A stretch of DNA of 64,000 bases from Dipteris shenzhenensis (lineage: Eukaryota), in the NCBI GenBank assembly GCA_047967505.1, contig CM106538.1, one strand, 5' to 3'. Both the position numbers and the translations under genes were made by a program. Shown here in pieces: positions 2,563 through 64,000 of this stretch. How positions within the stretch are numbered: position 1 is the first letter of the stretch; every line of letters starts with the position of its first letter. The notes below the pieces were generated by a model. That model saw nothing but the letters and a program-made list of their open reading frames with translations. It did not search any database and was not told the DNA's origin.

Positions 2563-2566
<4 letters not shown>
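827..2566 (-). mobile_element. RTEX-like LINE copy 1: 5'-truncated, RT core deleted, AATAAA-(CT)n 3' tail
   Basis: Minus strand carries the endonuclease end (FTCFPPGGGSSVVDYIMGS...ADH), NSWYDDECK, KLQNGRAKDHEGL and NPENYRTIMIGH fused to the C-terminal SYPNQRCLAGFIHDVLRHR. The 3' end is TAATAAA followed by (CT)n. Confidence 0.8.

Positions 2567-2617
<51 letters not shown>
2567..2617. repeat. (GA)n microsatellite, also the 3' tail of LINE copy 2
   Basis: Directly visible. Confidence 0.95.
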
Positions 2618-2620
<3 letters not shown>

Positions 2621-2665
2621 ATTAAAGTCTTCGGAAGACTGATGGGTCTATGAGACTGTGAAAAT

Positions 2666-14739: not shown

Positions 14740-14832
14740 TACCACACTCTTTCTCAAGAGGTGGGCCTCGGTAGTTTGGTGGAAGGATATCTTTGCTGCA
14801 CTTTTTGACAGGTGAATATTACAACCATAAAC

Positions 14833-28600: not shown

Positions 28601-31600
28601 TGTAATTTTCTCTCTTACTGGCACAAAGTGGGCTTGTTTGCTAAACCTGCAAATTATTGTCCACAATCCATCATGTCCAGTAGGAGTACGTGGAAGATCA
28701 AACACAAAATCCATAGCTATGCTTTGCCATGGTCTATCCGGAATTGGCAAAGGGTGTAACAACCCAGGTGCCTTCTTCCTGTCAAACTTTACTTTCTGAC
28801 AAACCATGCATGTTCTCACATATTCTTCCACATCTTTCCTCAAAGATGGCCAATAAAAGTATTGCTCCACTGCTGTAATTGTTGCTGTAATTCCCCTATG
28901 TCCTGCATATGGAGGAGCATGACTTTCCATTATGACTTTCTGTCGCATTTGATCAGTGACACAGAGTCGTCCATGCATCAAAATGAAACCCTCTTTCAAC
29001 ATATAGTGATCATGCCTTTGACCATCAGAAAGCTGTTCATAAATAGTTGAAAAATCAGCATCATTAACATACTGATCTTTCATCACATCTAACACATTGT
29101 TGTAAGCAATGCTCACTGTTGAAACACTGGGTTTCTTGGAGACTGCTTTAGGCTGTGGTTTCCTGGAAAGTGCATCAGCCACGACATTTTTGTTACCCGG
29201 CACATGTACAATTTGAAAATGAAACATTGAGAGGAAGTTAGCCCATCTCATGTGCTTTTCAGATAATTTTCTCTGCGTGAGAAAATATCTAAGTGACTGA
29301 TGATCAGTTTGCACATAAAAATCAGCTCCAAGAAGGTAATGTTTCCATGTGGTCAAAGCATGTATCACTGCTAACATTTCCTTCTCGTATGTCTGCAAGT
29401 ACAATTCAGCATCTTTGAGAACTCTACTCTCATATGCAACCACTCTGCCATCCTGCATCAAAGTGCCTCCTATGCTGTTCCCACATGCATCACAAGTTAC
29501 AGCGAAGGGTTTTGCAAGATCTGGCAAGATAATAACGGGTTCAGAACACAATTTTTGCTTCAGCTCTTCAAAAGCTGCATTTTCCTTTGGTCCCCACCGA
29601 AACGGTTCAGCTTTCTTTTGTAAAGCATGCAAGGGAGAAGCAATTTCTGCAAAGTACTTTATAAACCTCCGATAGTATGAACACAACCCAAGAAAGCTTC
29701 TGACTTCATGCAGATTTTTCAAAATTGGCCAACTCCTTATGGCCTCAACTTTTGCAGGATCCATCTTGACTCCATCCTTTGACACTATATGACCGAGAGA
29801 ATGAATCTCATGCATAAAGAACTCACTTTTCTTGGTGTTTATTAATAGCTTGTGTCTTTTCAACTCTTGAAACACAATAGTGAGGTGTTTCTTGTGCTCC
29901 TGCTCATTTTTAGAGAACACAATGATGCCATCGAAGAAAGTGCCCACAAACTCTCTGTGTGCTCTAAAAATTCTGTCCATCATTCTATTGAAAGTGGCAG
30001 GTGCATTAGTCAAACCAAAAGGCATCACAAGGAACTCATATAAGCCAAATGAAGTGCGGAAGGCAGTCTTGTAGACATCTTCAGGCCGTATCCTTATCTG
30101 ATGGTATCCACTTTTAAGGTCAATACGACTGAATATTGAGGAACCTTCCAACCGATCCAATATATCATCAATGTGTGGAATTGGAAAACGGTTCTTAATT
30201 GTGACTTTATTCAAAGCCCTATAATCAATACACATTCTCCAACTGCCATCCTTCTTTTGCACAAGCAACACAGGGGAACAGTAAGGAGAATTACTTGGCT
30301 GTATTAATTCCTTTTCCAAGAGTTCCTTCACTTGTGACATTATCTCTTCCTGTTGTGCCTTACTGACATGATAGGGAGGTATATTAGGCGGTGAGCTTCC
30401 TGGAATTATATCAAGTTTATGATCCTCGGGCCTCTTGGGAGGTAATTCTTGAGGAACTGCATCTGAGAAACAATCCTGAAAATCTGAAATAAAAGCAGCC
30501 CTTTCTCTATCTAAAGCACAAAGAGTAGAGCCTTCCTGAACTGGTTGGCTGTCCTCTTTGACAAAAATCAAGTACGCTGAAATATGACGCTTTATTACAT
30601 TGGAAATACAAGAAGCTGAAACTACAGGGATGGACTCCCCTTTCAACTTTACATCAAGTACATGATTTTTGCCTCTATGAGTTAAAGAAATCTTCTTGTT
30701 TCTCATCTGCACATCTGCCCCCACCCTGTACATCCAACGCATCCCAAGCAAAGCATCACACTCTGGCAAAGGCATAATGTAGAAGTCCTTTGCATCCTGA
30801 TATCCCTGGATATGCATCCTCAACTTGCCAATGATAGGAGTGAGAGGTGTGTTGAGTTCAGGGTTGGCCATATCAGACATGCCGGATGGCCCCATTTCCT
30901 CAGGCTCGATGACAAGCCTTCCTGCCATATCAGGAGTTATGAAATTTGCCTTTGCCCCAGAATCAAAGAAAAACAAACAATTCTGATTTCTGATTTTTCC
31001 CCATGCTCTGCACATCTCAGTCTTTTTCATTTCCTCTTCATCATGTGCATGTGGCAAACTCCGAATCACATCTGGAAGAAGTCCTGCAGAAGGTTTAGGC
31101 GTTTTGACCTTCCGATCAGCCTGTTTATCACCATTCTTATCATCATCTGACCTGTCTCTTTTCTTGAATGGGCAATCATAAGAGCGGTGTCCCTCTCCTT
31201 TGCATATAAAACATTTGTTTTGCTCCATGAGTGACTTTTTCTCTTCATCAGATAACTTGGAAAACCTCTGGGTGTAATCATTAAGATTCTTGCAAAGTTT
31301 GTATGACAAGTCATGCCAGTGTGAAAGTACTTCAACTTCAAAAGTTGGAGTAAGCCGAACACTTGCTTAAATTCCAGCCAAGTAGTAGGTGCATCTCCAT
31401 GAAGCAGAAGGTTGGTGTACCACTTAAGTGCATTGCCTTTCAAAAATGTGGCAACCTTCCTCATCTCGGATGCTTCTGTAAACAAACCCACAAGAAATGC
31501 AGCATCAAACTGTTGAAGGAATGTGAGGGCTTTGTACCTGTCCTGTACTCCATTATATGTATCAAACTTGACATGAGAACCACCATCCTTAAATTCTTTA

Positions 31601-34116
31601 TATACATTTGATATTGGCCGTCCCAAAGATGGCTGTATATTTGCAGCATTCCCTTCACTAGGGAGAGCCATGCTTGGCTGAACATTAGGCATGGGAGCAT
31701 ATGCTGTGGCTTGCATGCCTGGCTGCATTCCCACATTGTCATACATGGCTTGTTTTCTATGCCCGATTGGCGGTGAAATCAACATAGCATCAAAGATAGA
31801 ATCTGTACCAAAATATTCAGGTTGCTGCCTCAAATATGGCTGAGGTGGTTGAGCCACATCTATGGACTGCACATTATTATTTTGAGGAGTAGAAATACCC
31901 AAACCAAGGCCTTGTGCTGGCTGCTTATACTGTTGCACTGGATGTACTTTTTGTACCTCTTTCTCAATTGCTCTTTTGGGTGATTCCTCTCTCTTGGAAG
32001 TCACTTTCTGAGTCATTTTTGATGGCTGTCCCTCATGGGAAACTGATGCATGAGTGTGCGGTCCGCCATGAGAAGCTGATGCATGTGTGTACTCACTCTT
32101 TCCGTGCTTGTGCTTTCTTGATTTCTTCTTCTTCTTGGCATTTGTTTGCACAATCTGAGCCAAATTTTGAGCCAGCTGAGTCAAAGCAGTCACTGCACTT
32201 GCAAGCTGTGCATTCAACATAGTAGCATCATTTGACTCACTGCTAGAACTAGTATCACCGTTGAGCTCAGTTGTAGCTTCATGTGTGGCCTGCTCAAAAG
32301 GCATTTGTTGTGCTCCCTGCAGCTGTACACTAGCTGGGTCATTAAGGCTTTCCTGCCTTCTCCTTTGAGGAGTTGTGGAGCTCTCTTGCTCATGGGTACT
32401 CACCATGTTGATGGTTGTAATATTCAGCTGTCAGAAAGTGCAGCAAAGATATCCTTCCACCAAACTATCGAGGCCCACCTCTTGAGAGAGAGTGTGTGGT
32501 ATCCCGGCAATGGAACCAATGAAACCGGCCTCTAATCACTCAGAGGGCAGTGGAACTAAACCTTTAATCACTTCAGCACTTATTTACAGCTCACAAAGCA
32601 TATATCACAACCATTAACCATTGCATGATCACCATTTGGCATTTACCCATTTGTTCACAAACAAAACCACTGAAAAAGAGATGGAGGCTAGAATGCCCCT
32701 GCTCAACAGACATAGACAAGTGCACCCGATTGGCCCCAAACACCGTGGCGCCCCTTTCGGTATTTTTTTATATTTCACAGTGAAATGATTACAAGTTGCA
32801 TCTGGGAGACCTTCCTTGCAACTGAGCACGCAGCCCCAATTCACTAAGCCTTCGCAAGGCTTTCAAGCATAGAACACCATCAAATAAGTGCACTTAACCC
32901 GGCTCAACCCAAAGGCATTCTCTTTTCCGAGTGCAATTCCATTGGCTGTCCAGATGCAATCACACTGCACCCCAGCTGCACTCTCTTTGAGTGGTTTCTA
33001 GATGGCATTCACAAAGCTTTTCAAAGCTCCAAAATAAAATCAGCAAAGTACCCAACCAAAGAATGACTCATGTAGAACTGCTTGGGCACCTGTGAGCCAA
33101 GAAAGAGGCGGCACACGAGGCCAACCAATAGCTTATGGCAAAAAGAAATTGCAGTAGCAAGATCACAACTCACCAAGCCCTGAAGACTCGAACCAAGTCC
33201 TCAATCGCCAAGAGGACATAGTAGCCAATGCCCAATTGCATTCTCAGCCAAAGAGGAGTGCAAAGGCATGAAGAAAGAGCATTTACAAGAGCCGACCAGC
33301 AAGAATTCCACTGAAAAATGCGAAAAGAAGCACTTCTGTCGCGAGGAAGTGGGAGTTCTTGGGCTCAAAAGAAGCGTGCTTCAGAGAGGAATGCATGGAG
33401 AAGGTTTGGAGAAGTTTCATCGCCGGAAAGTCCTCCAAAACTGAGAAAAACCAATCAACCAGCGCGTCGAACCACTCGAAATTCAACAGAAAGCTGTAGC
33501 TTTGCAAGAGGAGAGGCCCAAGAGGCGGTAGAAGAGAAAAGGTCCAGAAAAAGCCACTTTTGCAAATTCGACCAGCAAAAGAAGTGCTCAACTCTGCCCG
33601 TTCTACCAAACGCACGGAGGGAAAAGCATATCACTACGAAGGGGAGGCAGAGGGGAAGCCATCGGGCCAAACGGAAGTCGAGGAATCCAAACGGGTGAGG
33701 AGTTATGAAGAAAAACGGAATTCAGCTAAAGGAGGCTGAAAAACCAGTCCAAAATCTCATTAAAGGGAGAAGATGAGAGAGAAAACCACACATGTGAAGT
33801 TTAGAAGGCCCAGGAAGGTCCAGGAATGGCAAAGTAGCATGTACAAGGCACTAGAGCCACCTGGAATTCTAGGGGGGCCACTGAAGGTACATGGCCCTCT
33901 AGGGGGCCCATTAAAAATGCCACATCATCATTTCCCGACAACCACTCTTTTAATTCCTTGGAATGCCTTTGGGCCTAGGGATTAATTTTGCTTATGTGCT
34001 AGGCATCATGCCGCGTTTAATTACACATTATTAAGCCCACGCTTGGACTTTTAAAACCAAAGTTGTCACGGTCTTGTAGTACATTAAAGTACTTAGAATT
34101 TCACACCCCCGTGACA
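25649..34116 (-). mobile_element. Full-length Ty3/Gypsy chromovirus, copy B (same family as A, inverted)
   Basis: LTRs at 32520-34116 and 25649-27247, PBS 32502-32518, PPT near 27250, 5-bp TSD CAAGA (25644-25648 and 34117-34121). Confidence 0.96.
27536..32406 (-). pseudogene. gag-pol of copy B: gag broken by ~10-bp and ~350-bp deletions; pol open but RT catalytic DD changed to DG
   Basis: Comparison with copy A at ~31357 and ~31261. ORF 27536-31309 has FFDGII, intact RNase H, integrase and chromodomain. Confidence 0.92.
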
Positions 34117-38350: not shown

Positions 38351-41300
38351 TGTAGGCATCATGGATCATTTAGTCACGTATGCAAGTCGTCTTTGATCAG
38401 CATTCCATGTTGCCAACTGAAGATGTCTAGGTGTGAAAGGCAATGAGTTACACAAACTGTGAGACTCCAGATGCAAATCGTAGTGTACGATGAAGGTGTA
38501 GGATCGTTAGATGAAAGAGCAAGTGCAAGGTGCAAAGAGTCGATAGATTCAGCCGTCACGTCAACTAGAGTGTGAAAGAAAAAAAGTACATGGTACTTGT
38601 AGCTAGACCTAGACCCTAGGACTAAGTGTCCTAGGTGTCACATAGGACTAAGTGTCCTATGTGGCCTAAAAGGCACTAAAACTATAAGTGCCTATATCTA
38701 TGCCTACAAGGCACATACCATGGCCTATAGGGCATCACTAGAACCACCAGAAGATGGCCTACAAACCCCCCTCCATGGGATGGGGGAAACGTCTTAGAAT
38801 ACCTGGTATTTTTTTGGTCATGGTGGCACATGTTCATCCAAAAGAATATAGCCACCTATGAATGTACAAGGTATGTCAGATCATGTAACAAAGGGAACCA
38901 AGTGTAAAGCCTGGCGGAAGACTTCGAACTTGGGACGAGGAAGTGCCTTTGTAAACAGATCTGCTATGTTGTCCTCTGTGGGAAGATAGGACAACTCTAT
39001 GTCTCCTGTTGACAACCGCTTCCGAATATAATGATAGTGAACTTCAATATGCTTGGTACGCGCATGAAACACTGGGTTACGTGCAATGGCCAAAGCACTC
39101 TGGCTGTCAGTGTAGACCATAGTGGAGGATGTCTGGCGAATACCAAGATCTGTAAGTAACTGTTGAAGCCAGACACACTCTACTGTAGCGGTGAACGTTG
39201 CCCTGTACTCAGCTTCACAGCTAGATGTGGCAACTGTTGGTTGCTTCTTGCTAAGCCAAGCGATACATGAATTGCCAAGCAAAAAACAGTTGCCGGTATG
39301 TGACACTCTGGTGTCTGAACAACCTGCCCAGTCACTATCCGTGTAAGCATGCATGGTAAGTGAGCCCTGATCACCATAGAAGAGGGCTAAATTCTGAGTG
39401 CCTTTGAGATATCTGAAAACTCTCTTCACTGCCTGCCAATGTTGTGAACTGGGCATGTGCATGAATCTGTTGAGCTGAGATACTGCATACTGTAAGTCAG
39501 GTCTGGTGTGACATAAATAAATAAGGCATCCAACAGCTTGCTGATAGAGAGTGATATCACATGGTGGGCTCCCATCATGAGCTGAGAATTTGAAGCCAGG
39601 GTCCACTGGAGTAGAGATTGGCTTGCAATCCTCGAACTGAAAACGAAAGGAGCTGTCCAATATACTTGGACTGTGACATCATGATACCCCCCTCAACATG
39701 AGCAAATTGAATGCCCAAATAATAGTGGAGCTATCCCATGTCCGACATTTCAAAAATCTGCTGCAAATCAGTCTTGACAGCTGCAATATGCTGAGTATCT
39801 GGGCCCGTGATGAGCATATCATCCACATATAAAATCAGCACTAAAAAATCAGATCCACTCCCACGGACATAAAGAGTGGGTTCTGTGGGGCTATTCTGAA
39901 AACCAAGGGATAGTAAGTGTGCATGAATTTTGGCATAACATGCCCTGGGTGCCTGCTTCAAACCATAAAGGGCCGGCATACCTTGTTTTTAGAATTAACA
40001 ACCTCAAAGCCAGGAGGTTGTGTGACATAGACTTCTTCCTGCAGATCCCCATGAAGAAAAGCAGTCTCGATGTCAAGTTGGTGCACTTGCCAATGATGAT
40101 GGGCTGCAATGGCAATGACACATCTAATGGTAGTAATCCTGGATGTGGGAGCAAATGTCTCCTCAAAGTCAATGCCTTGTTGTTGGGCATACCCTTTTGC
40201 AACAAGACGGGCTTTGCGTCGATCTATATTGCCATCAGATTTCCTTTTTAATTTGTAGACCCACTGGGTACCAATGGCATGCTTGCTGGGAGGAAGATCT
40301 ACTAATTCCCATGTGTCATTTTTGGCAATGGATTGTAACTCAGCTCTCATTGCATCCATCCACTCTTTGTTGTCAAAAGCATCTTTATGGCACAGAGGCT
40401 CTTCATTGCAAGCTGTAGCAAGGAGTGCAAACTCAAGAAAGTGACCATGCATCTGTCTATTCCCTGACCTTGTCCGGGCAGCAAAAGGCTGATCTTGTTT
40501 GCTGTCCTTCAATGTATCAAGAAGCCATCGGGGAACTTGTCTTTGCTGTCTATTGACAGCTCTTTTTTCAATCACTGCATCATGAATAGTGGGATCATTT
40601 TGTGCTGGAAGAGAAACCTGCAAATCAGCATGACTGGCTGATCATTGCTTGTTGAAGGGCCTGCAGGAGGCTCATGTTGCTGGTCAAAGTCCTCTCTGAG
40701 GATGGCAGAGGTAACCAAGATTTAGAAGCATCAAACATGTCAACTTCTGGCTTAGCTTTGCAGTCCACAAGAGGAGAAGCCGAATGTTCAGCAAAGATGA
40801 CATCTCTACTGACAATAATCTTCCTCAGTATTTGGTTGGTATAACCGATATCCTCTGCTCTCCTGGCTGTAACCAATAAATATGCATTTGATTGCCTTGT
40901 CATCAAGCTTATGTCTCAGCTAAGATGTTACATGAACATATGCAAGAGACCCAAAACCTCTCATGTGTGAAAGTGAAGGCTTCTTGCCTTTCCATGCTTC
41001 ATAAGGTGTAATAGTCTTCAATGCCCTTGTAGGTGATCTATTCACCACATAGTTGGCACACATCACTGCATCAAGCCAAAATTTATTGGGCAAAGACTTG
41101 GTCTTAAGCATGCATCTGGCCATCTCCATAGTAGACCTGTTTTTCCTTTCGGGAAGAGGATTATGCTGAGGAGTGTAAGGAGTAGTGCATGAGTGAACAA
41201 TGCCCCGCGAAGACAAAAATGCATCAAACTCCTTTGACATATACTCTACCCCCCTATCTGTGTTGAGGGTGACAAGCTTGCATCCTGATTCATTCTCAAC

Positions 41301-42590
41301 CATATTCCGCCACCTCTGAAAGCATGAGAACACTTCAGATTTGGCTTTTAAAGGATATACCCAGCAATATCTTGTGAAATCATCAATGAGAGTCATGAAA
41401 TATTTGTTACCGCCCAATGGCATTTGTCCTCATTGGGCCAGAGACATCACTGTGCACTAGCTGCAATTTCCTTTGTGAGAGTTTTGGACAATTCTTTTGA
41501 AAAGGAAAAAGATGCATCTTACCCAAAAGACAACCCTCACACACATGTTTGGAAACTGCGTGAGTTTGAGATACATCATTTGCCATCTACTGTGAACATA
41601 GCTTTGCAAGAGCTCTATAATTAAGATGACCCATTCTCTCATGCCAAAGATGAGTTTCAACAAGCTGTGAATCTGAAATAGCAAATGCTTCAATAGAAAG
41701 TGCAGTTGAGTGATGATCAAGGTGATAAAGCCCCTTTTGCAAAGTACCAGTGAGAACTATGGCATTGTCATCACGAAGATCATAAACTCGGCATCTGTAG
41801 CCATCAAAAATCACTCTGAAACCTGAAGTGGCAATTGCTGAAATTGAAATCAAGTTGACTTCAATTCCAGGCACAAAAATAACATTTGTCAAAGTGATAG
41901 GATGACTTGAAATGGATGTGAGCTGCACATCTCCAATTCCTTTTACAGCATATGAAGCATTGTTAGCACATGTGACAGTCCCCCCTCAAGGTGCATCAGC
42001 TAAAGAATGAAACAACTGTTTGCAAGATGTGACGTGCGTGGAAGCACCACTATCAAAATACCAAGACTGAGCATCATTAGCAGTAAAGAGTGCATCAGCT
42101 TTGGAGGGATCAAATGAGCAATGGACAACCCATGCCCAATCATCTTGGAGAGCATGTGCATGTGAAGCATCTGCTGGCTCATGGGATTCAATAGCATGTG
42201 AGGCATTAACTGTCAATCTTGCTTTCATTTTCTCCGAAGCAATGCACTTCCTGCATTCTGAAATGTCATGTCCAGGCTTGCGACAATAGTTGCATCTTTT
42301 CTTCTTTGACTTATCTGCTGTATTTCTAGATGCATGGGAGGAATTGTAGCTGCTATGCGCAGATTTAGGCTTGCCCATAGGCTTGGAAGCCTTGCCTCTT
42401 CCTGTCTGCTGTGAAGCAAATGCATGATCAGGAATAATGGCTTGTCTATTAGCTCGACTTTGCTCTTCCTGCAAAAGCAAAGTAACTAGCTGATCAAAAG
42501 AGTAGTGATTTGGATTACCCATGGCCATTAACTGAAGAGTTGTAGCAAACCCTTGATATGTATCTGGCAATCCATTCAATGTGGTACTGA
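38351..42590 (-). mobile_element. Ty1/Copia element, 5' end missing, frameshifted pol, 413-bp 3' LTR
   Basis: gag CNYCRKPGHDISEC, PR WYFDSGASTHV, LWHERMGH, integrase IDDFTRYCW, RT LYVDDML, RNase H YTDSDWAG...RTKHIEVHYH. PPT GGAGGGGGG. LTR 38351-38763 with TGTAGGC...GCCTACA ends. Confidence 0.92.
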
Positions 42591-45500
42591 CAAGCTACCA
42601 ATTCTTTTAATGACCTTGAATGGGCCACAGTATCTGGGGGATAATTTCGGAACCAAACCAGTACTTAGGCTCTTGGATTCGTTAGGAATTCGCAAATATA
42701 CCATCGTTCCTTCAGAGAACTCTCGAGGTGAACGATGTCTATTAGTATAAAATCTGTCCCGATCTTGGGCACTTCTAATAGACTCCTTGGCAAACTGCAA
42801 CATTTCTTGCATATCTAGCAAGAAGTTCTTAGTAGCATCATTTTGAATTCCTTTTAACCCAACCATAACTGGTGACTTAGGTTGAAACCCGTACATAAGC
42901 ATAAAAGGACTGTAACTCGTACTAGAATGCTTTGCACTGTTATAAGCAAATTCAATCATAGGTAGATAATCTTCCCATGAAGACTGTCTCTTAGATACAT
43001 ATGCCCGAAGCATGTCTTCAACCAACTGGTTGACCTTCTCTGTACTGTCATCAGTTGTGCATGATCCGAGGAACTCATACTTAGAGTAGTTTCTAACTTC
43101 TCAAATACAAGTGTCCAAAAGGTACTTGTAAACTGTGAGTCCCTGTCACTGACTATGTCAGATGGCAAACCATACAGCTTAAACAAGTGGTCCACAAACT
43201 CGTGAGCCAGCTGAACAGCTGAAATAGTTGTTCTAGTAGGTAAGAACCTAGCCATTTTTGTCGCGCGTTCGAGGCAAACCAGTAATAAAATCCATGGAAA
43301 TACTTTCCCATTTATTACCTGGAATCTGTAATGGCTGTAATAAACCCGCGCTTCTAAGGCGTTCTGCCTTAGTAACCTGACAAACTCGGCAACCTACTAC
43401 ATAGTTTTCAATAAATGCACGCATCTTAGGCCAATAAAAGGTATGCTTCACAAGAGACAGAGTCCTATGTATACCCGGATGTCCAGCACTAGGAGCATCA
43501 TGACACTCCCAGAGAATCTTGGATTTAAGGTCCGGAACATCTGGCACACAAATCTTTTCATTCCGGAACAGCAAGCCGTTCCTAATCATCCACTGACCTC
43601 CCGCCGCCTGTACCGTAGGTGGCACAATCCCTGAGTCCTGGTCAACCATGGAGCTCCCATCCTGGACTCTTTGCCAATAAGAACTGAAATGACTATCAGT
43701 TGCGTATAGCCCTCTCAAGGATTGAAATAGGTTTGAGGATATTTCCGTAAATGACAGAGCATTTACAAACTTAACTCGACTTAAGGCATCCGCCACACTA
43801 TTTAACGAACCCTCACGATAACGTATTTCAAAATCAAAATCTTGCATTAATTCTGCCCATCTAGCTTTCCTTCCCCTCAATTCTGATCCATCACACACAT
43901 ACTTAATTGACTGATGATCAGTCAATACAAGGAACTTTGGACCATACAAGTAGTGTCTCCAAACCTTAAGAGCATACACTACAGCATAAAGTTCCTTCTC
44001 GAGTGTGGGCCAACGATATTGAGTGTTGTCTAGCTTCTTACTCTCGAAAGCTACAGGTCTGCCCTCTTGGAATAGAGCTGCCCCAATCGCATAATCACTC
44101 GCATCGGCCTCTAAAACATAAGGCCGGGTAGGATCGGGTAATGCAAGAACGGGTGCTTCCTTGATAGAAAATTTCAAGGTTTCAAAAGCCTTGTTCATTG
44201 CATCATTCCAAGGGATGGGCTGAGTAGATCTGCGTCCACGACCTTTCAATATGTTTGTCAGGGGTGCCGTGATATGTGAATAATCACGCACAGACTTCCG
44301 AAGAAATACCGTAAATCCTAGGAAAGAACGAAGTTGTTTCACAGTCTGAGGGATAGGCCATTCTAAAACCTTCTGGATACGATCCGGATCAATGCTATAC
44401 CTTCAGAAGAAATCTTGTGTCCTAAGTAAATGATCTCCTTAATAAAGAAGTCACATTTACTCATCTTGGCATAGAGCTTATGCTGTCTTAGGACAACTAA
44501 GACAACCCGGAGGTGTCCTATGTGATCCTTAAGCGTTCGACTATATACCAAGATGTCATCTAAGAACACAACAAATTTGCCCAGAAAATCCCTGAACAAA
44601 TCGTTCATCATCTGCTGAAAAGTAGCAGGAGCATTGGTCAAACCAAAAGGTAATACGAGGAACTCGTAATGACCATACCTAGTTCGGAATGCGGTCCTAT
44701 CTATGTGTTTAGCATAGATACGGATTTGATGATAACCCGTACGCAAATCAATCTTAGTGAAATACTTCGCTCCGGCCAAATGGTCTATCAAATCATCGGA
44801 ACGAGGGAGAGGGTATCGATTCTTAATTGTCACTTTATTTAATCGTTTATAATCTATACACATTCTCCAGGAAGAATCTTTCTTCTTTCTTAGGAGGAGA
44901 GGTGCACCCCATGGTGATTTACTTGGGCGGATATAGCCCATATTGAGGTAATCCTGTAGCTGGGTAGCTAACTCATCCTCCTCTACCTGGCTCATCCTAT
45001 AAGGTGGTACACTGATAGGTTGAGCCCCTGGGACTAAGTCTATGCGATGATCTACTGCCCGTTCTGGAGGTAAACCTTCCGGCAGTTGAGCGGGGAATAC
45101 ATTCTTAAAACTATCTAACAACATTCTCAATTCACGGTGTTCAAACACACTTAAATCATTCTTGTTAATGACTAAAACAACAAATGAAGAAAGCGGAATC
45201 AAAACACACTGATAGACATCATAATGAGAATTGTTTAATATATTCCGAAGCTGCATCGCAGATACAATAGGCCCTTGAGAAGAGGAAAATTTATCACACT
45301 GAATACAAAATTGGGTGTCCTTATCTACAAAAGAAAGCGTATGCTCCGTCCATCCAATCTGAATATTGTGGGTTTTAAACCACTCTATTCCGATCAACAA
45401 GTCTACATGCTCCAGATGCATAACATAACATGTAAGAGCCCCTGTGTAGGCTTGAATCCGGATAGGAAGCGCTTCAATCTTGCGATCCCAAAACTGTTTC

Positions 45501-48331
45501 CCAGCTGAAAGCTGCACCTCATAGGTGTGATCGCTAGGTATCGTGGACAGTCCCATCTTCTGCACAAATTTGTAATTAACAAAGTTGTGAGAGCTGCCCG
45601 GATCAAAGAGAATGTGAACCTGTTGGTCCCTAACTTCTCCATAAACTCGGAAAAGATCATGGGAACCAAACAACGAAGTATTGAAAGTGCAATTACAAGA
45701 AAGTGGGCAGGTAATGACATTTACTGAAATACCTGTCATCGAAACTTGGTTCGCTCCCTTGGCTCTGGTTCCTGGACCGCCTGGAGCTTCGGTCCGAGCG
45801 CTAACTTTTGATTCTTGCGCTTTGGACATTCATTCTTGGTGTGGCCCCGCTCCTCGCAGTAGAAGCAACGTCCTTCTTTCTTAAACTTCAATGTGCGAAG
45901 GAAACGGGCTCGACCATTCTTTGCCTGAGTCAAGTGTTTCTTGGAGGCGTTGTCCGTAGACTTCGTCTCCCCGGTACCAGTCGTAGGCTGAAAGAACTTT
46001 CATTTGTTCTTTCCACTTGTGTCGGAAACTGTAGTTGCCTTTGCACCGGCCATGGTATCATCATAAATACGCGCGTAATTCATGGCCTCTTGCAACGTTG
46101 TACATTTGTTGTTCTTGATTTGCAACTTGTATGAATCTGGCAAACCATCCACAAAGAAACCTAACAAGGTCACTGGATCCATCTTTGTGGTCTTGGTCTG
46201 CAGATCTCGAAACCTTTGAAGATAAACTTCAAATGACAAGTTCTGCTTAGACATATCGAGGGCTTAAGCTTGCCAACGATATCATAGTCGTCCTCCTTCT
46301 TCAGGAACTCCTTCCTGAAGACCCCTTCGAAATCTAACCATGTAACCGGCTTAGGTTGGAGTTCCTTCCACCATAGCAAAGCCTTTCCTGACATGAAACC
46401 GGCTGCAAGCTGGATTTTCTTCTCATCTGGGTACGGGTGGAACTGGAAGTGTACCTGCCACTTGTGCAACCAAGTGTCAACAACCTCCTTAGTTCGAGAC
46501 TTTTGATCTCCTGGAAAAGGGTCTGGAGTTATGTTCGGGCCTAGCACTGAAGCCATGGCATCCACATGTGTGAGTGCCTGCACAGTGCTAGCCAGAAGAG
46601 TGAGAGTCGCTTGAATCCCTTGGAGTTGCTGTGTCAACCCCATTTGATTCGCATTAACCTGCTCGAATTTTCCATCCAGAGCAGTGGTGAATTCACTGAA
46701 GGCCTTCTTCGTAATCAGATCGTCATAAAGACCCTGGTCTTCCTCAGCAGGGTAATCTAAATCCTGATCTCCCATGGTAAACTTGGGATTTGCAGAATCA
46801 GACATATCTGAAATCTGATTTGAAAAGAATATAAAACTGAGAGAAATAATTGGGGGAATCGAAGCTGGAAGGAGAGTGAGGCAGAGAAAAAACCGTCCCA
46901 AGAGAAGCTGACGGAAGGAGATGCTGGAAACTGGCGAACCGGAAGCCCACGAATCCCGAAATCTCGCTGAACCCCGTGCCGGATGCAACATACGGAATCC
47001 TGCAGCGTACGGACTGCTGATGTGGCTGTATGGCTGCTGATGCAGTCCGTACGTTGGCTGACGTAAGCCGTACGGCTGCTGATGCAGTCCGAACAACAGC
47101 GGACGGAGGCCGTACAGCAGCTGACGTGGCTGTATGGCGACTGGCGCAGATTGCTGGCGATGCAGGTACGGCTGACGCAGGGCTGGCGCAGATGTACGGC
47201 AGGCTGACGCAGGGCTGGCGCAGGCAGGCTGACGCAGGCGCCGTACGGATGGCTGGCGCAGGGCTGGCACGCTACTCGATGGCGCAGCTAGGCTCTTTGC
47301 AAGGCTATGGGTGGGCTGGTACCCTGCCCCATCTATATAGGGAGCAGGGCAGCCTAATTAGGAAGCCCTGCTTCCAAAAAAGGCCGACCCTCCCAGCGTT
47401 GGAGGGGGTGCTTTTTTCGAAAAAAGCATCCCTCAACGCAGGCTGGCCGCACCCTGTTCCTGCGCATCTCGCCTCTCCCTGCCCTGGCCGGATTTCCGTA
47501 CAGCCTTGGCGTCCCATCTCCGCCTCCCTTGCAGCCCTTGTCAGGTCCTTCGCCTCTCTACTTTCTCTGTTCTACGTTTCCTTGTCTTTCCTTCTTCTCT
47601 GCTCTCTCTCCTGCTTCCTACAGCCTTCTCTCTCAGCCCCCTTCAGGAATTTCAAAACTCTCCCTCCTTTCTTCTACCTTTTCCCTACATCCTGACCACC
47701 CCTGCTAACCCAGGAACCCAGCAGAAATCGCAGCAACAAATTTCGAATTTTAGGGCATACCTGGAGGAAAAATTCGTCAAAAATTCTCGCATCAGAAGTT
47801 CCTACCTCAGGAGTTGGCTCTGATACCAACTGACACGTCCTAGCACTCCTGAAACCTCCGATCTGCAAACAAACCACACACAACGTGAGAAACTGAGCAG
47901 GCTGCTCACCACCCAACCATGACATCTACGGGATGTGATCCCGAATCAGGAGATGTCCCCTCCGAGCCATGAGCTGAGCTACTGGCACGAACTCCCAATC
48001 AGATCCAAACCAGCCTGGTGTCCCATACCACCAGGTGGCACTGTGAAGCCCTGGATCTGCCACTGGGCCTTGGGCTACGCTAAGATGCAGGCGCGCGTCC
48101 GCGACTCAATCCAGGAACAGACCTGGCACCTGGGAACGAAACTTGCTCCCAACTGCACACTGAGAACTGAACCCCCTGGGCCCTTTTTATAGACTCGGGC
48201 CCCGAGCGCCAAAAATAGCGAAGACCTATAAATAGTTCGTACCCTTGCCACTCAACCCGAGAATCAAGCCTGCCTAGCTCTAAGCCTCCCCAGGCTAACC
48301 TGAGCTAGCTCTGTGTACCTAGTACACATCA
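42590..48331 (-). mobile_element. Ty3/Gypsy element, 3' end missing, frameshifted gag-pol, tRNA-iMet PBS, 5' LTR from 47831 to about 48331
   Basis: gag (MSDSANPKF...[20 protein letters not shown]), [24 protein letters not shown], RNase H EADASDYAIG, integrase CHDAPSAGH...CRVC and GPF motif. Reverse PBS at 47815-47828. Outer LTR edge is approximate. Confidence 0.9.
47005..47270. repeat. GC-rich imperfect tandem repeats in the Gypsy 5' leader
   Basis: Recurring GCTGCTGATGCAGTCCGTAC, GGCTGACGCAGG and GCTGGCGCAG units. Confidence 0.75.
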
Positions 48332-52329: not shown

Positions 52330-53070
52330 CCTCACCAGTTTCAGAACGACTCGTCTCTTGACGCCATATCGTTCTGTACCGAAAGCTTGATGAGCCATCA
52401 TGGATCTCATAAGACCGAATGCCAGCAAATGGGTCCCTGAGACACAGAAGGCCGTGGAGGTGATCTTCCCCGTTTGGGAGGAGCAGCTGAAGAGAAAGGG
52501 GAAGGCCGAAGTGAACGCCCAATCTGTGCATGGTGCTTTGAACGTGCTGCTGAAAACCATTGTTGGACGCGATCCTATTGCCCCGGGAGAGGCTAGCCTC
52601 AAGACTCCAGGTCCTTTCTTGTTTCAGGCATGGCTAGATCCCCAGCTAGCGCCGTCGCCAGCGCGGGACTCCCCCATGTGCTGGAAGAGCTCCTCATACA
52701 CACCTTCCCCATCCCTTTCTTTTTGGTCTCCATCTTCTACAAAAGAATCGTCAAGTTCTTCGGGGGGTTGAATCTATTTCTCCCGATGCTAGTGGGCTAC
52801 GTTGGGAGGGCGGGGCACAAGCTACACGCGGAGCTAGCGAGCAAGGTGAGGGAGGCAGTGAAAGCAGAAGGGGGGAAGCTGAATGCGGAGGCGGTAAGGC
52901 GGATGGAGCCGGTGAAGTCGACGGTGTACGAGGCGTTCAGGATGGCACCGTCGGTGCCATTCAATACAGGAAGGTGCCAGCCGTTAGCGGAGAGAGAGCC
53001 GAAGGTGTTCGAGGAGCCGGATAGCTTCATCGCAAAGAGGTTCATGGGGGAGGAAGGGAAGAAGCTCGTG
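52330..53070 (+). pseudogene. CYP74: CYP74 (allene oxide synthase/hydroperoxide lyase family) pseudogene with internal deletions and no heme-binding C-terminus
   Basis: GLPHVLEELLIHTFPIPFFLV; FGGLNLFLP...GRAGHKLHAELA; VKSTVYEAFRMAPSVP (ExxR); QPLAEREPKVFEEPDSFIAKRFMGEEGKKL. Stops and a frameshift are present. Confidence 0.88.
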
Positions 53071-53479
53071 CGAGCTGAGCTAGTCCTCTCGCACAAACTC
53101 ATTCCAGCATTCATTGAACTGCAGCATCATGACAGCCAGCTCTTTCTCCATGAAGAGTGTAGACTCCGTGTTTTTGCTGCTCGCTTTCTGGTCTTTTCAC
53201 CATGGCATGATGCATCGCGTCAAATTTGTTCATGGATGATGGAATCGCTGACCCAACTTGGTTACCCGAGCCAGCTCAGACCTCCTTTGTCGACAAATTC
53301 TCATAGATTTCCTCCCACAACACATTATAGAACATATTCAATGGGGCAGTTCTTTCGGGCACCCAAATCGTGCCCCCTTGTTGTCTACCCATCAATCACT
53401 TATCCCTGCGAGTGGGCAGACCTATGTATGTTGTTTGTGGAACCAACTCCACCGGATGATTGAGGAGAGGCAAGAGGAG

Positions 53480-59287: not shown

Positions 59288-60589
59288 TTTCGAAGTGAGT
59301 GCAAATACTCAATTGCATATTCTTCTTCCTTTTTCACCTTTTTCTTTGACAATTGTCACCCATCTTCTTCTTCCTTTTCGCTTCCTCATCTCCTTCTATG
59401 CCTTCCTATCTTTGTTGGCGCATTTCGGCGATAACAATGTTGGAGGAGAGATCTACCGGACAATGAGTGAAGAAACCTGGCTTAAGCACATAGATACCAT
59501 TATAAAGAATTTTGATTCTATTGGGCCGCTCCAAAATCAGATGCTGGAAGAGAGAGTGCCAAATTTCCCGTATGCAGCGGCCAGAAATAGAATCTCAATA
59601 GAATAAGAGCTGAATTCGTTAAAGAATTGAAGATAGGACACTCCCGATTGTAGATGCACGATAGAAGAGCAACACGACGTAGTGCTCATTGATTGGCATA
59701 GCGGCAAGGTTGCTTACACCGTTGTCTCCCACACTTTTGGAATGGATGTCTATGGTGTATTTGACTGCGAATGCTCGTCAAAGCGTCATGCAGAGGTACC
59801 ACGATGCTCGCGGCAAGCTCGTGCTAGTGGCACTAATGGCATGGACTTTCACCGGTGCATTTGTATTCTCTTGGAAGAGCAACAAAACAGATTTTCTCTA
59901 CGCTGGGATACACGAAGGCTTCCTTCTACGCTCAAACCTCCACACTCAGGCTTCCTCTACGCTGAGCCATTTATGCTCTATCTTCTTGTCTAAGCTGATG
60001 CCGTTGAGCATCTATCTTCTTGTCTAAGCTGATGCTTTTTGGAGTCCTTAGCCGTTGAGAATCTTATTATCGAAAGTGCAGCATTGGCCAACAACAAGAA
60101 TGCTAAACGAAGCTGTGGATTTCTTTTTTTGAAAAAGCGTTTGGCCAAGCCACGGTGCTTGTCACAACACCAAAATCATACAAACTCCAATATGTCGCAA
60201 AGGATTCACTTCTCTTGTAGAGAAACCTTTGCAAGCTCTGATGCAAGTGCCTTTAGAGACAGGAGGTCACACGCGAGAATCCTGCTCTCACAAAAGAATG
60301 GCCTTGTCAATATATATTAAGATATTATAAGATACATGCATGCCTCGGAACACAATTTCTCTGGATACCCGCCCAGTTTTGGTTCGTTTCTACACTGTTA
60401 AATATTGTGCCAGAAAGAAGAATTCCAAGGCTCGTAAAGGTCGTTGGTGTGATGGCGTCCTTGTTAGGAAAATATATTTGCAAAGGAGACTTCCGTGGCG
60501 CCAGGATAGGTCGAGTCCAACAAAGAAGCACATGGATTGGCGACAACCAGCTGCCCTGATTATCACAATCTGCAAGGTGGCTTGTGCGT

Positions 60590-61018
60590 GAAACAAATTG
60601 GTGGGCCGAAAGAGTCACATTCAATTTTGAAGTGGTTTTTTGGCCAAACCGATATCCCAAGTGTGATCTTGGGATATCAAAGGTCATAACAATGGTGAGC
60701 TACTTGAAGTTGAGGGCTATGGATCCTACCGCGTAGACTCCGCGTAGAATGGCATCTAGCTTGCTGACCTCAAGACTATTCAATGTATGTTTAATGTGGA
60801 ACATGGAGTAGATACAAGCCATCCTTGTCCACTGTGCATGCAAATGAGAGTACATGCAAAGGGTGGTAAAAAGAATCAAAAGCAATGGGCCTCTGAACTT
60901 GCAAAGATAGATCAAACTAAGGCACCAGATAGGGATGCTCCAGGGAAAGATCCATCATGGAGCCCAATTCTTGAAATTCCTCTTGAGCGAGTACACATTT
61001 GTGCACTTCATGCTATTA
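60590..61018 (+). pseudogene. RAG1/Transib-type DDE transposase, central part (frameshifted)
   Basis: Reconstructed across frameshifts: GPKESHSILKWFFGQTDIPSVI-KGHNNGELLEVEGYGSYRVEWHLAADLKTIQCMFNVEHGVDTSHPCPLC...PILEIPLERVHICALHAII. Confidence 0.7.
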
Positions 61019-61430
61019 TCACAGCATTGATGAAACACTATGCATCATCTTCTTCGAATCTTTCTTTTGTAGTAAAGGTACCAAGCTATCAAGAGCTAAC
61101 CACACTCGCACCTTTTCTAGTCTTTTTTGTCCCTTCCCCCCTCGTTCACAATAGGCATTGTGTAACTTTCTCTATACATCAAACTCATTAGCACATTTGA
61201 GCTTGTCATTCTTCTTCTTTGAAGAAAAAAATTTCAAAGCCTTGACACCACCAAAGCTTGGTTACAAGGAACATTGCTTGTTTTTCCAGATCTTTTCTCA
61301 TCTTTTGTAATCTTTACTTGCCCAAAGTGTAGTCCCATATCTAAAAGAACCTTTTCGATTCTTGCAATCATCCTCTCACTCTCTCGTTGGGGCTTCAAGT
61401 TATATTCATCAATGATGTACAAAATGCACA
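61019..61430 (-). pseudogene. Inverted, truncated duplicate of the transposase C-terminal part
   Basis: Near-identical to 62090-62500. Confidence 0.7.
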
Positions 61431-61903
61431 CAATGAGTACACATTTGTGCACTTCTTGAAATTCCTCTTAAGGGTTTTTATTAAAACACGTATTTTTAAA
61501 AATTAGGATTTTGGGCCCTATATAAAATAACGTGCCCTCATTTTCATTTCATTATTTAAAGAGCTCTCCACTCCCACACCACCTCCCACTTGCCCCTAAT
61601 ATTTCCACCCTATCTCTCACACCCTCACCCTTTCTCTCGCACACTCTCTCCATCCCCCTTGGCCAGGCCCAAGATCAAGGCACCACGGAGACTGGCACAG
61701 CCAGAACCACCTCCAGACTTAGAGACAGAGAGTGAGAGCCTCCCCCCCTCTCCCCCCGATGATCCCCATCGAAGGGAGAAACTGCCAATCCAGAAGCCAG
61801 ACAGGGAGCAAGAGGGACAGAGGAAGGCACAAGAGGAGGGACAGAGGAAGGCACAAGAAGATACTTTGATAGAGACGGATGACTTAGAGAGCATAGAGGA
61901 CGA

Positions 61904-62500
61904 TGCTTCTATAATTCCATGTCATGTATGGTGCATGAGCATATAAAATGTGTTGCCAAAAAGAAAAACAAATCGGTAAATATAGGACCATTCAATATGC
62001 ACATCTCAATGTCCAAGTTAGAGATTACCATGTACTGTGTGAAATGATTATTTCCCCAACCTATCTCCATATTCCGACTAAAGTCATTCATAGCATTGAT
62101 GAAACACTATGCATCATCTTCTTCGAATCTTTCTTTTGTAGTAAAGGTACCAAGCTATCAAGAGCTAACCACACTCGCGCCTTTTCTAGTCTTTTTTGTC
62201 CCTTCCCCTCTCGTTCACAACAGGCATTGTGTAACTTTCTCCATACATCAAACTCATTAGCACATTTGAGCTTGTCATTCTTCTTCTTTGCAGAAAGGAA
62301 TTTCAAAGCCTTGACACCACCAAAGCTTGGTTACAAGGAACATTGCTTGTTTTTCCAGATCTTTTCTCATCTTTTGTAATCTTTACTTGCCCAAAGTGTA
62401 GTCCCATATCTAAAAGAACCTTTTCGATTCTTGCAATCATCCTCTCACTCTCTCGTTGGGGCTTCAAGTTATATTCATCAATGATGTACAAATACACACA
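61904..62500 (-). pseudogene. RAG1/Transib-type transposase C-terminal part (inverted), with a 76-bp intron at 61953-62028
   Basis: ...IEKVLLDMGLHFGQVKI...PSFGGVKALKFLS...KARVWLALDSLVPLL...GWGNNHFTQYM^HILYAHAPYMTWNYRSI. The intron starts GTAATC and ends with a pyrimidine tract plus CAA (decayed CAG). Confidence 0.68.
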
Positions 62501-62569
62501 ATGAGTACAATTTGTGCACTTCTTGAAATTCCTCTTAAGGGTTTTTATTAAAACATGTATTTTTAAAAA

Positions 62570-62593
62570 TTAGGGTTTTGGGCCCTATATAAA
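62570..62593 (+). promoter_or_regulatory. Compact promoter: telo-box (TTAGGGTTT), site II (TGGGCC) and TATA (TATATAAA)
   Basis: TTAGGGTTTTGGGCCCTATATAAA about 135 bp upstream of ATG 62726, followed by a CT-rich leader. A degenerate copy lies at ~61503-61526. Confidence 0.65.
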
Positions 62594-62725
62594 ATAATGT
62601 GCCCTCATTTTCATTTCATTATTTAAAGAGCTCTCCACTCCCACACCACCTCCCACTTGCCCCTAACATTTCCACCCTATCTCTCACACCCTCACCCTTT
62701 CTCTCGCACACTCTCTCCATCCCCC

Positions 62726-63460
62726 ATGGCCAGGCCCAAGATCAAGGCACCACGGAGACTAGCACAGCCAGAACCACCTCCAGACTTAGAGACAGAGAGT
62801 GAGAGCCTCCCCCCCTCTCCCCCCGATGATCCCCATCGAAGGGAGAAACTGCCAATCCAAAAGCCAGACAGGGAGCAAGAGGGACAGAGGAAGGCACAAG
62901 AGGAGGGACAGAGGAAGGCACAAGAAGATACTTTGATAGAGATGGATGACTTAGAGAGCATAGAGGACGAGTGTGAGGAAGAGGAACAAAGGATAGAGTA
63001 GAGGAACAAGGCAAGAATAGACAATTAGGGTCCACGCCAACGGGGGAAGGGTGCCCGAGCTCCAAGTGCAGGTCAAAGAGGCCCTCAACATCCAGGAAGA
63101 GGCCCTCCACATCAAGGGCAAAGAGGCCTTCATCTAATGAGGCGGTACAGATTCAAGCCAAGGGTAGTGGCACTTTAGGAGATCATAAAGTTTCAGAAGT
63201 CCATTGTTTTTGCTCATCCCGATGGCCAGCTTCGCAAGGGTGGATGCGAGGTCATGTAGGACCTCAACCTTAGCCCAACGTCTTGATTTTATAGGCGCAG
63301 AGTTGTGGAGGCATCCTGGTGTATTTCTAGAGATGCCTTGCTTGCCCTGCAGCATGTAGGTGAGGCCTACCTAGTAGACCTCATGGATGACACCCAGCTG
63401 GTTGCCATCCATAGGAAAAGTGTTGCGGTGATCGCCATAGACATGCAATTTTGTATGTCC
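62726..63460 (+). pseudogene. Intronless divergent histone H3 variant (partly CENH3-like) with a ~137-aa N-terminal tail
   Basis: MARPKIKAPRR start, in frame with MRRYRFKPRVVAL*EIIKFQKS at 63137. Then LLIPMASFARV and ISRDALLALQHVGEAYLVDLMDDTQLVAIHRKSVAVIAIDMQF. Several stops and two frameshifts. Confidence 0.88.
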
Positions 63461-63497
63461 TAGGAAGCCCAAGGGCACTTAGGGATTTTATATGCTC

Positions 63498-63566
63498 CAC
63501 CTTGTACTCTACCTACAGGCATCTACCTTGTACTCTGCTACGGGCATCTACCTTGTACTCTGCCTA
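63498..63566. repeat. Three ~23-bp tandem units (CATCTACCTTGTACTCTGC) after the histone ORF
   Basis: Directly visible. Confidence 0.8.
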
Positions 63567-64000
63567 TAAGCATCAATATAATAAAATGTCTTTTTTAGAA
63601 TTATCTTTGTATGTGCAATCTCAAATTTATTTTCAGTGTATTTCCAATCTATTAATTTACTTACATGCACTCTCAATTTACTTACGAAAGACTTTTTGAT
63701 GACGTATACAACATCAAAATGAAATAATAATTATCAAATCACAATAGAACATGCAAAAGGAAATAATACTCAATTTTACTTAACATAGAAAAGGAAAGAT
63801 CTGTAATGCCAGCTAGCCTGCAATAGCTATAATACTATGTAGCGGACCATATCATGTGTCCGAGAACAAAAACAAAGCTACACTATGCCTAATCAGAACA
63901 ACACAATCGGTAGTAGGACGGATGGGCCTCATCTTCACCATCTGACTGAGGACCCTGAACTTCATGATGTTCATCTTTCCATCTGGCGATAATTGTCTAT

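Follow-up and report, generated by a model that had tools for sequence, protein, structure and literature searches.

Structure of the locus

The 64,000-nt stretch of Dipteris shenzhenensis DNA analyzed here (contig CM106538.1, assembly GCA_047967505.1; the window) carries, close to its 3' end, the remains of a transposase gene followed by a histone H3-like pseudogene. A sequence-only reading had flagged positions 60,590 to 62,500 as a transposase with the motif order and spacing of the RAG1 core. The flagged region is not a gene: it holds approximately 350 transposase codons broken up by stop codons, frameshifts, an inversion and an 885-bp duplication (Table 1). Residue numbers refer to P0033, a full-length relative of 900 aa, unless another protein is named, and HMM stands for a hidden Markov model of the transposase family described below.

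Table 1. Features of the window. Values given with HMM matches are E-values.
Feature	Position	Strand	Remarks
Transposase fragment, middle part	60606..61018	+	about residues 455-588 of P0033; PKESH, LADLK, CPLC, RVHICALH
Transposase fragment, copy 1	61019..61434	-	about residues 590-725; part of the 885-bp repeat; inverted with respect to the fragment at 60606..61018; HMM 9.7e-15, 5.8e-5
38-nt junction patch	61435..61472	+	second copy at 62502-62539
Duplicate of histone H3-like gene promoter and N-terminal tail	61473..61903	+	coding part 61659-61907, with 95 % identity to the full copy; stops at the repeat end
Transposase fragment	61904..62087	-	about residues 725-778; ..WGNNHFTQYM to 62029, intron, then HILYAHAPYMTWNYRSI at 61952-61902
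Transposase fragment, copy 2	62088..62503	-	about residues 590-725; contiguous with 61904-62087 on the minus strand; HMM 1.2e-15, 5.5e-14
885-bp direct repeat	61019-61903 and 62088-62970		97.9 % identity, 184-bp spacer
Histone H3-like pseudogene	62726..63463	+	one frame, 246 codons, 5 internal stops, no frameshift
HMM match	60510-60686	+	9.1e-5
HMM match	60667-60744	+	0.0017
HMM match	60760-61188	+	7e-32
HMM matches	62569-62306, 62330-62091, 62106-61912	-	family profile
HMM matches, duplicate copy	61467-61237, 61261-61175, 61171-61022	-	family profile
Tandem repeat	63496-63574		three copies of the 25-nt unit CTACAGGCATCTACCTTGTACTCTG
Chromodomain Ty3/gypsy retrotransposon, two copies	14809-19902 and 27536-32430	+ and -	RVT_1, RT_RNaseH, Integrase_H2C2, rve, Chromo
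Copia-type integrase and gag, second Ty3/gypsy, LINE-like element with zf-RVT	38881-42594 (-), 42576-47357 (-), 1961-5613, 7768-8616
Open reading frame with weak cytochrome P450 match	52597-53463	+	E 4.4e-4, under Pfam's cut-off; may be a gene fragment

Four of the five motifs named in the sequence-only reading lie in the first fragment. PKESH starts at 60606, with K at 60609, as had been noted, and E at 60612; CPLC occupies 60826-60837, 20 codons past the aspartate at 60766, and RVHICALH has its H at 61009, 58 codons past the second cysteine of CPLC, both as described. The position of that aspartate had also been given correctly, but the word around it reads '*LADLK' and not 'AADLK'. The proposed spacing of 44 residues from E to D is true for intact relatives (E457 to D501 of P0033), but in the window the two are 154 nt, or about 51 codons, apart across an insertion. 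The fifth motif, FTQYM with HILYAHAPYMTWNYRSI, does exist (62043-62029 and 61952-61902, with HILYAH, part of HILYAHAPY, at 61952-61935). It is, however, read on the minus strand in an inverted piece, and the five motifs, supposed to follow one another in RAG1 order, are therefore not collinear: KES, LADLK, CPLC and ICALH are on the plus strand (60606-61018) and the fifth is on the minus strand. Of the two catalytic residues that had not been located in that reading, the first D and the final E, neither is present in the window copy; relatives provide them (in KLDE and QGME, respectively). Taken as a whole, the observation of the motif chain was largely right and is partly confirmed.

Decay of the copy is extensive. 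The first fragment has one frameshift (60668/60676), two in-frame stops (60745 and 60757) and about four extra codons before LADLK, and faint transposase likeness may reach 5' to 60519. Between the three minus-strand transposase pieces there are two frameshifts, and an in-frame stop lies near 62109. The 76-nt intron-like gap at 62028-61953 (minus strand) has kept its donor GT, while its acceptor is mutated to AA, and the minus-strand fragment breaks at 61902, 8 codons short of the position of the catalytic E in relatives. Missing altogether are the 5' 430 codons, including the first D, and the last 120 codons, including the E, so that the second D (60766) is the only surviving residue of the catalytic Asp-Asp-Glu (DDE) triad. 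The 885-bp repeat carries a minus-strand transposase piece together with the 5' part of the histone H3-like gene; its two copies differ at 19 positions, 15 of which are transitions, with 2 indels among the 19.

The arrangement would be accounted for by a transposase gene on the plus strand in which the segment for residues 590-778 was inverted and residues 779-900 were lost, the 885-bp duplication of transposase piece and histone 5' part following these events. The junction patch is made up of plus-strand words for RVHICAL (60989-61009, 21/21 identical) and LEIPL (60965-60987, 21/23) in swapped order, and the first of these words is a near-palindrome that may have seeded the rearrangement. Tandem slippage, inverted duplication and template switching at the near-palindrome were considered as origins of the patch, and none of them fits all junctions. 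The window copy cannot work, because the D-bearing 5' part and the E-bearing end are absent, residues of about 590-778 are inverted, the block is duplicated and both genes have stops. There is nothing functional in it; it is a fossil, useful as a pointer to its family.

A family of related proteins

A search with the 143-aa open reading frame (ORF) at 60760-61191 against 1.84 billion representative sequences returned 29 proteins at E <= 0.001 (best 5.1e-22), including proteins of 599 and 636 aa, and further homologue searches yielded the full-length relatives P0033 (900 aa), P0041 (898 aa) and P0087 (813 aa). The two members with organism names come from Klebsormidium nitens and Adiantum nelumboides. 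A family HMM of 553 positions was built from 20 relatives and run on the six-frame translation of the 64-kb window, where it recognized eight frame pieces at E < 0.01, all inside 60510-62569 and covering profile positions 225-531; no match to positions 1-224 was found in the six-frame translation. By these similarities the fragments belong to a recognizable, real protein family, and the match is far beyond chance.

One could object that non-coding repeat DNA resembles the motif chain by chance, since the region is rich in stops and the motifs come together only when several frames and both strands are combined. The 29 homologues in the database and the window-wide HMM search, with E-values down to 7e-32 and matches confined to one locus in 64 kb, rule this out, and we give it practically no weight.

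A quick maximum-likelihood tree of 35 rows and 506 columns placed the stitched window fragment as sister to a clade of P0033, P0041, P0035, P0036, P0087, P0004 and the translated locus L002. The support for this placement (87 in the Shimodaira-Hasegawa-like approximate likelihood ratio test) is under the 95 mark, and the highest identity, to P0087, is 48 %. Loci of the relatives, 32 in number, were taken from metagenome contigs. Many of them are disrupted by stops or frameshifts, and 15 of the 32 share one record prefix, that is, one assembly, yet are 32-60 % identical to P0033. Forms of 898-901 aa recur in the P0033 and P0041 clusters at >= 90 % identity (62 and 25 members, respectively) on contigs of 3-5 kb from many public assemblies, which suggests an expressed, intact version in some common organism.

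Few published data bear on such proteins in plants. According to Kapitonov and Jurka (2005; PMC1131882), plant genomes are seemingly free of recognisable Transib, and the main text of Tao et al. (2022; PMC9435367) gives a count of 39 potential Transib-like proteins for plants that it does not describe. Among open-access papers, a literature search for Transib in Viridiplantae or with the word stem Physcomitr- gave mentions in repeat tables or reference lists only.

Predicted catalytic and zinc-binding residues in the relatives

Residues expected of a RAG1-type enzyme are well conserved in the 34 aligned rows. The D of KLDE (D404) is present in 29 of the 30 filled rows, the E of KExH (E457) in all 34 and the D of GDLK (D501) in 33 of 34, while C521 is found in 34/34, C524 in 32/34 and the H of C.LH (H585) in 33/33 rows. 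The last exon of the relatives has the consensus H-x4-H-..-YGSL.IWSTQGME(K/R)SH, and the pattern Hx4H..W..GxE, which includes E779 of P0033, is shared by P0033, P0041, P0087 and 22 of the 32 loci; two further loci have F in place of W. In the P0033 model D404 is on a predicted strand and D501 just past one. The intron after THYM is at the same position in the window and in the relatives; read-through of the type '..Q|H' is seen in 17 of 22 loci, and 4 have no intron there.

Order and spacing of these residues (E, D, CxxC, H, Hx4H, E) are common to the family and RAG1, the spacing being nearly identical: E to D is 44 residues in P0033 and 46 in mouse RAG1, D to C 20 and 19, and the last H to E 19 and 20, with Hx4H in both. 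The family has a DDE triad in which the second D and the E are far apart (>200 aa), and it has both parts of the zinc module, for which metal binding is predicted: CxxC follows the second D by about 20 residues, and Hx4H precedes the E by about as many. The distance from second D to E, 278 aa in P0033, is closer to that of RAG1 (253) than to that of Transib (206-214), according to values in PMC1131882.

Predicted fold of the transposase

Structures were predicted with AlphaFold for the relatives P0033 and P0087, standing in for the window fragment. Model 1 (P0033, 20 sequences) had a mean predicted local distance difference test score (pLDDT) of 65.9, and model 2 (P0087, 47 rows including last-exon rows) a pLDDT of 79.6, with most of the core above 85. 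Foldseek comparison of model 1 with the PDB gave 45 matches at E <= 0.001, and those among the matches listed were all RAG1, BbRAGL or HzTransib (best 1.5e-8); the first other family among the matches listed was Hermes (0.087). With model 2 there were 49 matches at this threshold, again all RAG1, BbRAGL or HzTransib among the matches listed (best 4.3e-10; HzTransib 3.7e-7), and the first other family among them was the P element transposase (0.013). AlphaFold followed by Foldseek had been put forward as a check in the sequence-only reading, and the top matches were RAG1, BbRAGL and HzTransib, not ordinary CACTA, hAT or MULE transposases.

VIA-align, applied to the Foldseek list for model 1, aligned 353 residues with a Z-score of 12.2 (model residues 265-767 with RAG1 461-949) and placed 34 RAG-type rows ahead of the first unrelated row (7.2). 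A wide scan of model 2 against 48,161 representative chains, which is independent of Foldseek, ranked RAG1 (4wwx_E) first with Z 19.9, 441 aligned residues and a root mean square deviation of 4.3 (model residues 267-802 with RAG1 479-1008), followed by zebrafish RAG1 (Z 18.7), BbRAGL (18.3), HzTransib (14.4, 361 residues), P element (10.2), ISCth4 (8.0) and Hermes (7.1). For one RAG1 chain the alignment begins at model residue 214, equivalent to RAG1 403 in the nonamer-binding region. The C-terminal offset in the 4wwx_E alignment is +206, and H729, H734 and E753 of P0087 (+208/+209) fall within 3 residues of RAG1 H937, H942 and E962, the last being the residue mutated in PDB titles 6cil/6cik/6cim.

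In these models the whole predicted catalytic core of the relatives, from the dimerisation domain through pre-RNase H, RNase H, ZnC2 and ZnH2 to the C-terminal domain, fits the solved RAG1/Transib structures better than any other solved transposase. The models, together with the conserved residues, support assignment of the predicted transposase to the RAG1/Transib structural superfamily at fold and superfamily level, and at that level the RAG1/Transib interpretation first offered for the locus is upheld.

The best structural matches, mouse RAG1 (4wwx) and amphioxus BbRAGL (6b40), cover about 441 residues, starting in the dimerisation/DNA-binding domain and continuing to where the core ends, but identity to the family in the structural alignments is only 12-14 %. 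Where RAG1 has its N-terminal RING region, a long coiled coil is predicted for the family. A RAG2-like partner gene was not seen, the hosts of the family are streptophyte-like and the element comes with an H3 variant. HzTransib (6pqn/6pqx) has the same fold and, as in the family, a DDE triad with a very long distance between second D and E.

A histone H3 variant gene beside the transposase

The H3-like pseudogene in the window has an N-terminal tail of 135 codons and a loop 1 extended by about 14 residues relative to H3. It is preceded at about 62585-62600 by a TATA-like promoter. The protein matches the Pfam family Histone (4.1e-9), and its best matches in the PDB are all H3 chains (1.9e-8); among ten ORFs of the region, Histone was the sole Pfam match, for 63287-63463. 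A homologue search with the read-through H3-like protein gave 562 candidates, none at E <= 0.001.

Five related contigs have an intact or nearly intact H3-variant ORF 3' of the transposase and in the same orientation. The clearest case is L001, whose transposase is 99 % identical to P0033 and which has an intact H3 variant of 168 aa (Pfam Histone 5.6e-34) 137 nt past the transposase stop. In L002 the variant contains one in-frame stop, and the DNA alignment of L001 and L002 is continuous across transposase, spacer and histone (67 %, 2212 nt). The variant of L022 is long-tailed and begins with MARTKQTAKK, that of L017 begins with MARTKQTARK, and in L030 the start of a histone fold is present; all three run off their contigs. 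The H3-like protein of the window matches the variants of L001 (2.4e-15), L002 (1e-11) and L022 (7e-5). Since H3 variants adjoin the transposase in relatives and match the window's H3-like protein, the pseudogene most likely belongs to the same relic, with transposase then histone as the native order. The pairing of transposase and H3-variant gene in the five contigs is a new finding: no histone-carrying Transib or other DNA transposon was found in the literature, as represented by open-access papers.

Other features were observed around the histone genes. In L001 (2713-2858) and L002 (3077-3238) a third ORF (MVRVKK.. and MVRRKI.., respectively) with its own TATA-like promoter starts after the H3 variant, and in both cases the contig ends before the ORF does. 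This ORF may represent a second histone-like gene. A proposed likeness between the N-terminal tail of the window's H3-like protein and the third ORF start of L002 was dropped (E 0.63, not significant). Just 3' of the H3-like pseudogene in the window are the three tandem copies of the 25-nt unit CTACAGGCATCTACCTTGTACTCTG, and a similar word, TTGTACTCT, follows the H3 variant in L001. For the CTACAGGCATCTACCTTGTACTCTG repeats, a role as 3' signal or as subterminal repeat is conceivable.

Another subfamily (L016, L024, L014, L005 and L020) has a conserved convergent ORF of 404-619 aa, without a Pfam match, instead of H3. This second ORF is 27 % identical between L016 (3819-5033, minus strand) and L024 (3464-5323, minus strand), with E 3e-22. 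In L005 two 80-nt palindromic units with arms of 37-38 nt (5009-5088 and 5178-5257) lie beyond it, and L016 has a cluster of 22-nt repeats plus an inverted copy at 5051-5291.

Nature of the element

We consider it probable, at roughly 0.8, that a single copy of a cut-and-paste DNA transposon has decayed here to the remnant seen, and that it encoded a transposase of the RAG1/Transib superfamily, with an H3 variant gene downstream. Its chemistry and mobility, like any role of the histone, we infer. In working relatives an RNase H-fold DDE enzyme (D404, D501 and E779 of P0033, together with E457) whose zinc module is of the C2H2 type (C521, C524, H755 and H760) would nick the element ends. As with RAG1 and HzTransib, it would next close the flanking DNA into hairpins, and the excised element would be reinserted.

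Several results weigh against this reading. None of 20 family members matches any RAG1 model in Pfam at E <= 10, in a local copy that may lack PF26100-26104, and no PDB chain matches the family profile at the same threshold; the profile search proposed in the sequence-only reading as a further check thus gave no link to RAG1. No CMC (CACTA/Mirage/Chapaev) structure has been solved, so the structural ranking does not separate RAG1/Transib from CMC enzymes. Neither terminal inverted repeats nor target-site duplications nor heptamers resembling those of recombination signal sequences were found in the window or in the six longer loci (L005, L014, L016, L019, L022 and L024). Finally, the recurrent full-length forms would also fit a conserved host gene.

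CMC enzymes (CACTA/EnSpm TnpD-like, Mirage and Chapaev) are regarded as DDE kin of Transib, are common in plants, and also possess CxxC and a histidine pair, in their case HxxxH. The family could accordingly be a divergent CMC branch, RAG1 heading the structural lists merely as the nearest solved enzyme of a CMC-Transib type, given that the PDB offers Foldseek and VIA-align no CMC structure by which to discriminate. What disfavours CMC is, on that account, confined to Pfam and language-model comparisons. In Pfam, at E <= 10, none of the 20 members matched Transposase_21, DUF4218 or other CMC models, nor any other transposase-relevant family, and the window ORFs likewise had no CMC match. In the language-model comparison the nearest neighbours of the P0033 core were RAG1 fragment clusters (RAG1_RNase_H, RAG1_ZnC2 and RAG1_ZnH2; similarity 0.96, 198 of 256 features). 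With the RAG1 families masked, the next were clusters without a name or with a DUF1280 tag (on 12-16 % of members), from cnidarians and Mucoromycota (0.95-0.94), and Transposase_21 clusters (0.88-0.87; 124 features at 0.88) and a Plavaka cluster (0.86) formed a second tier, clearly below RAG1. This ranking is a lead rather than a test. A neighbour cluster of 778-aa proteins is labelled Streptophyta, for the 2 members with a record. The structural match also takes in the entire RAG1 core, beginning at the dimerisation domain and ending at residue 1008, and the histidine pair is Hx4H, like that of RAG1. Points in favour of CMC are the presence of Transposase_21 and Plavaka clusters in the second tier and the RepeatMasker label 'DNA/CMC-Transib', which treats CMC and Transib as related clades (bioRxiv 10.64898/2026.08.26.747230). 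Weighing these points, we regard a CMC affiliation as unlikely.

A different possibility is domestication: the full-length relatives would be host genes accompanied by an H3 variant, and the window would hold a pseudogenised duplicate of the gene pair. The near-identical full-length clusters of 62 and 25 members across many assemblies, the ORFs remaining open at 898-901 aa and the conserved intron position would all be in keeping with it. Mobility is not shown, because no element ends were found, whether with the CAC-heptamer and 5-bp duplications of RAG1/Transib or with the CACTA-type termini and 2-4-bp duplications of CMC: the inverted-repeat search in the six longer loci gave internal palindromes and simple repeats only. 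The similarity of the near-identical loci L006 and L007 was tried as a guide to an element end and stops at an apparent splice junction instead. CACAATG, the end sequence that together with 5-bp duplications defines Transib, occurs in the window at 61429, inside coding sequence, as expected by chance. On the other hand, many copies are diverged and broken, with 15 in one assembly, the second gene varies between subfamilies (H3 variant or unrelated second ORF), and the catalytic and zinc residues are retained. The window copy is moreover embedded in transposon debris, among nested repeats with Ty3/gypsy, copia and long interspersed nuclear element (LINE) remains. Domestication is in our view quite improbable, and the transposon reading is preferred.

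The surroundings of the relic were also annotated (Table 1, last rows). The two copies of the chromodomain Ty3/gypsy retrotransposon are in opposite orientation, and one of them has an open frame of 1276 aa.

Implications

The interesting part of the locus is the family and its histone cargo; the object in the window is a fossil. Transib/RAGL transposons, to which the ancestry of RAG1 is traced, have mainly been found in animals. With a family that combines the complete RAG1 core fold with all catalytic and zinc residues, and that has members in a charophyte alga and a fern, RAG1-type enzymes would have a wider range of hosts, and studies of how the RAG1 core domains evolved would gain an outgroup. 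The pairing with an H3 variant, if functional, would be a new kind of transposon cargo.

A more far-reaching proposal, which we put forward tentatively and consider doubtful, is that of a deep-branching RAG1-fold transposon lineage, invisible to Pfam and spread across streptophytes and other eukaryotes, in which the element's own H3 variant is a working part that marks or shields element chromatin for the transposase. If this were true, the element-borne H3 would be the transposon-side counterpart of the link between the RAG2 PHD finger and the H3 tail in V(D)J recombination.

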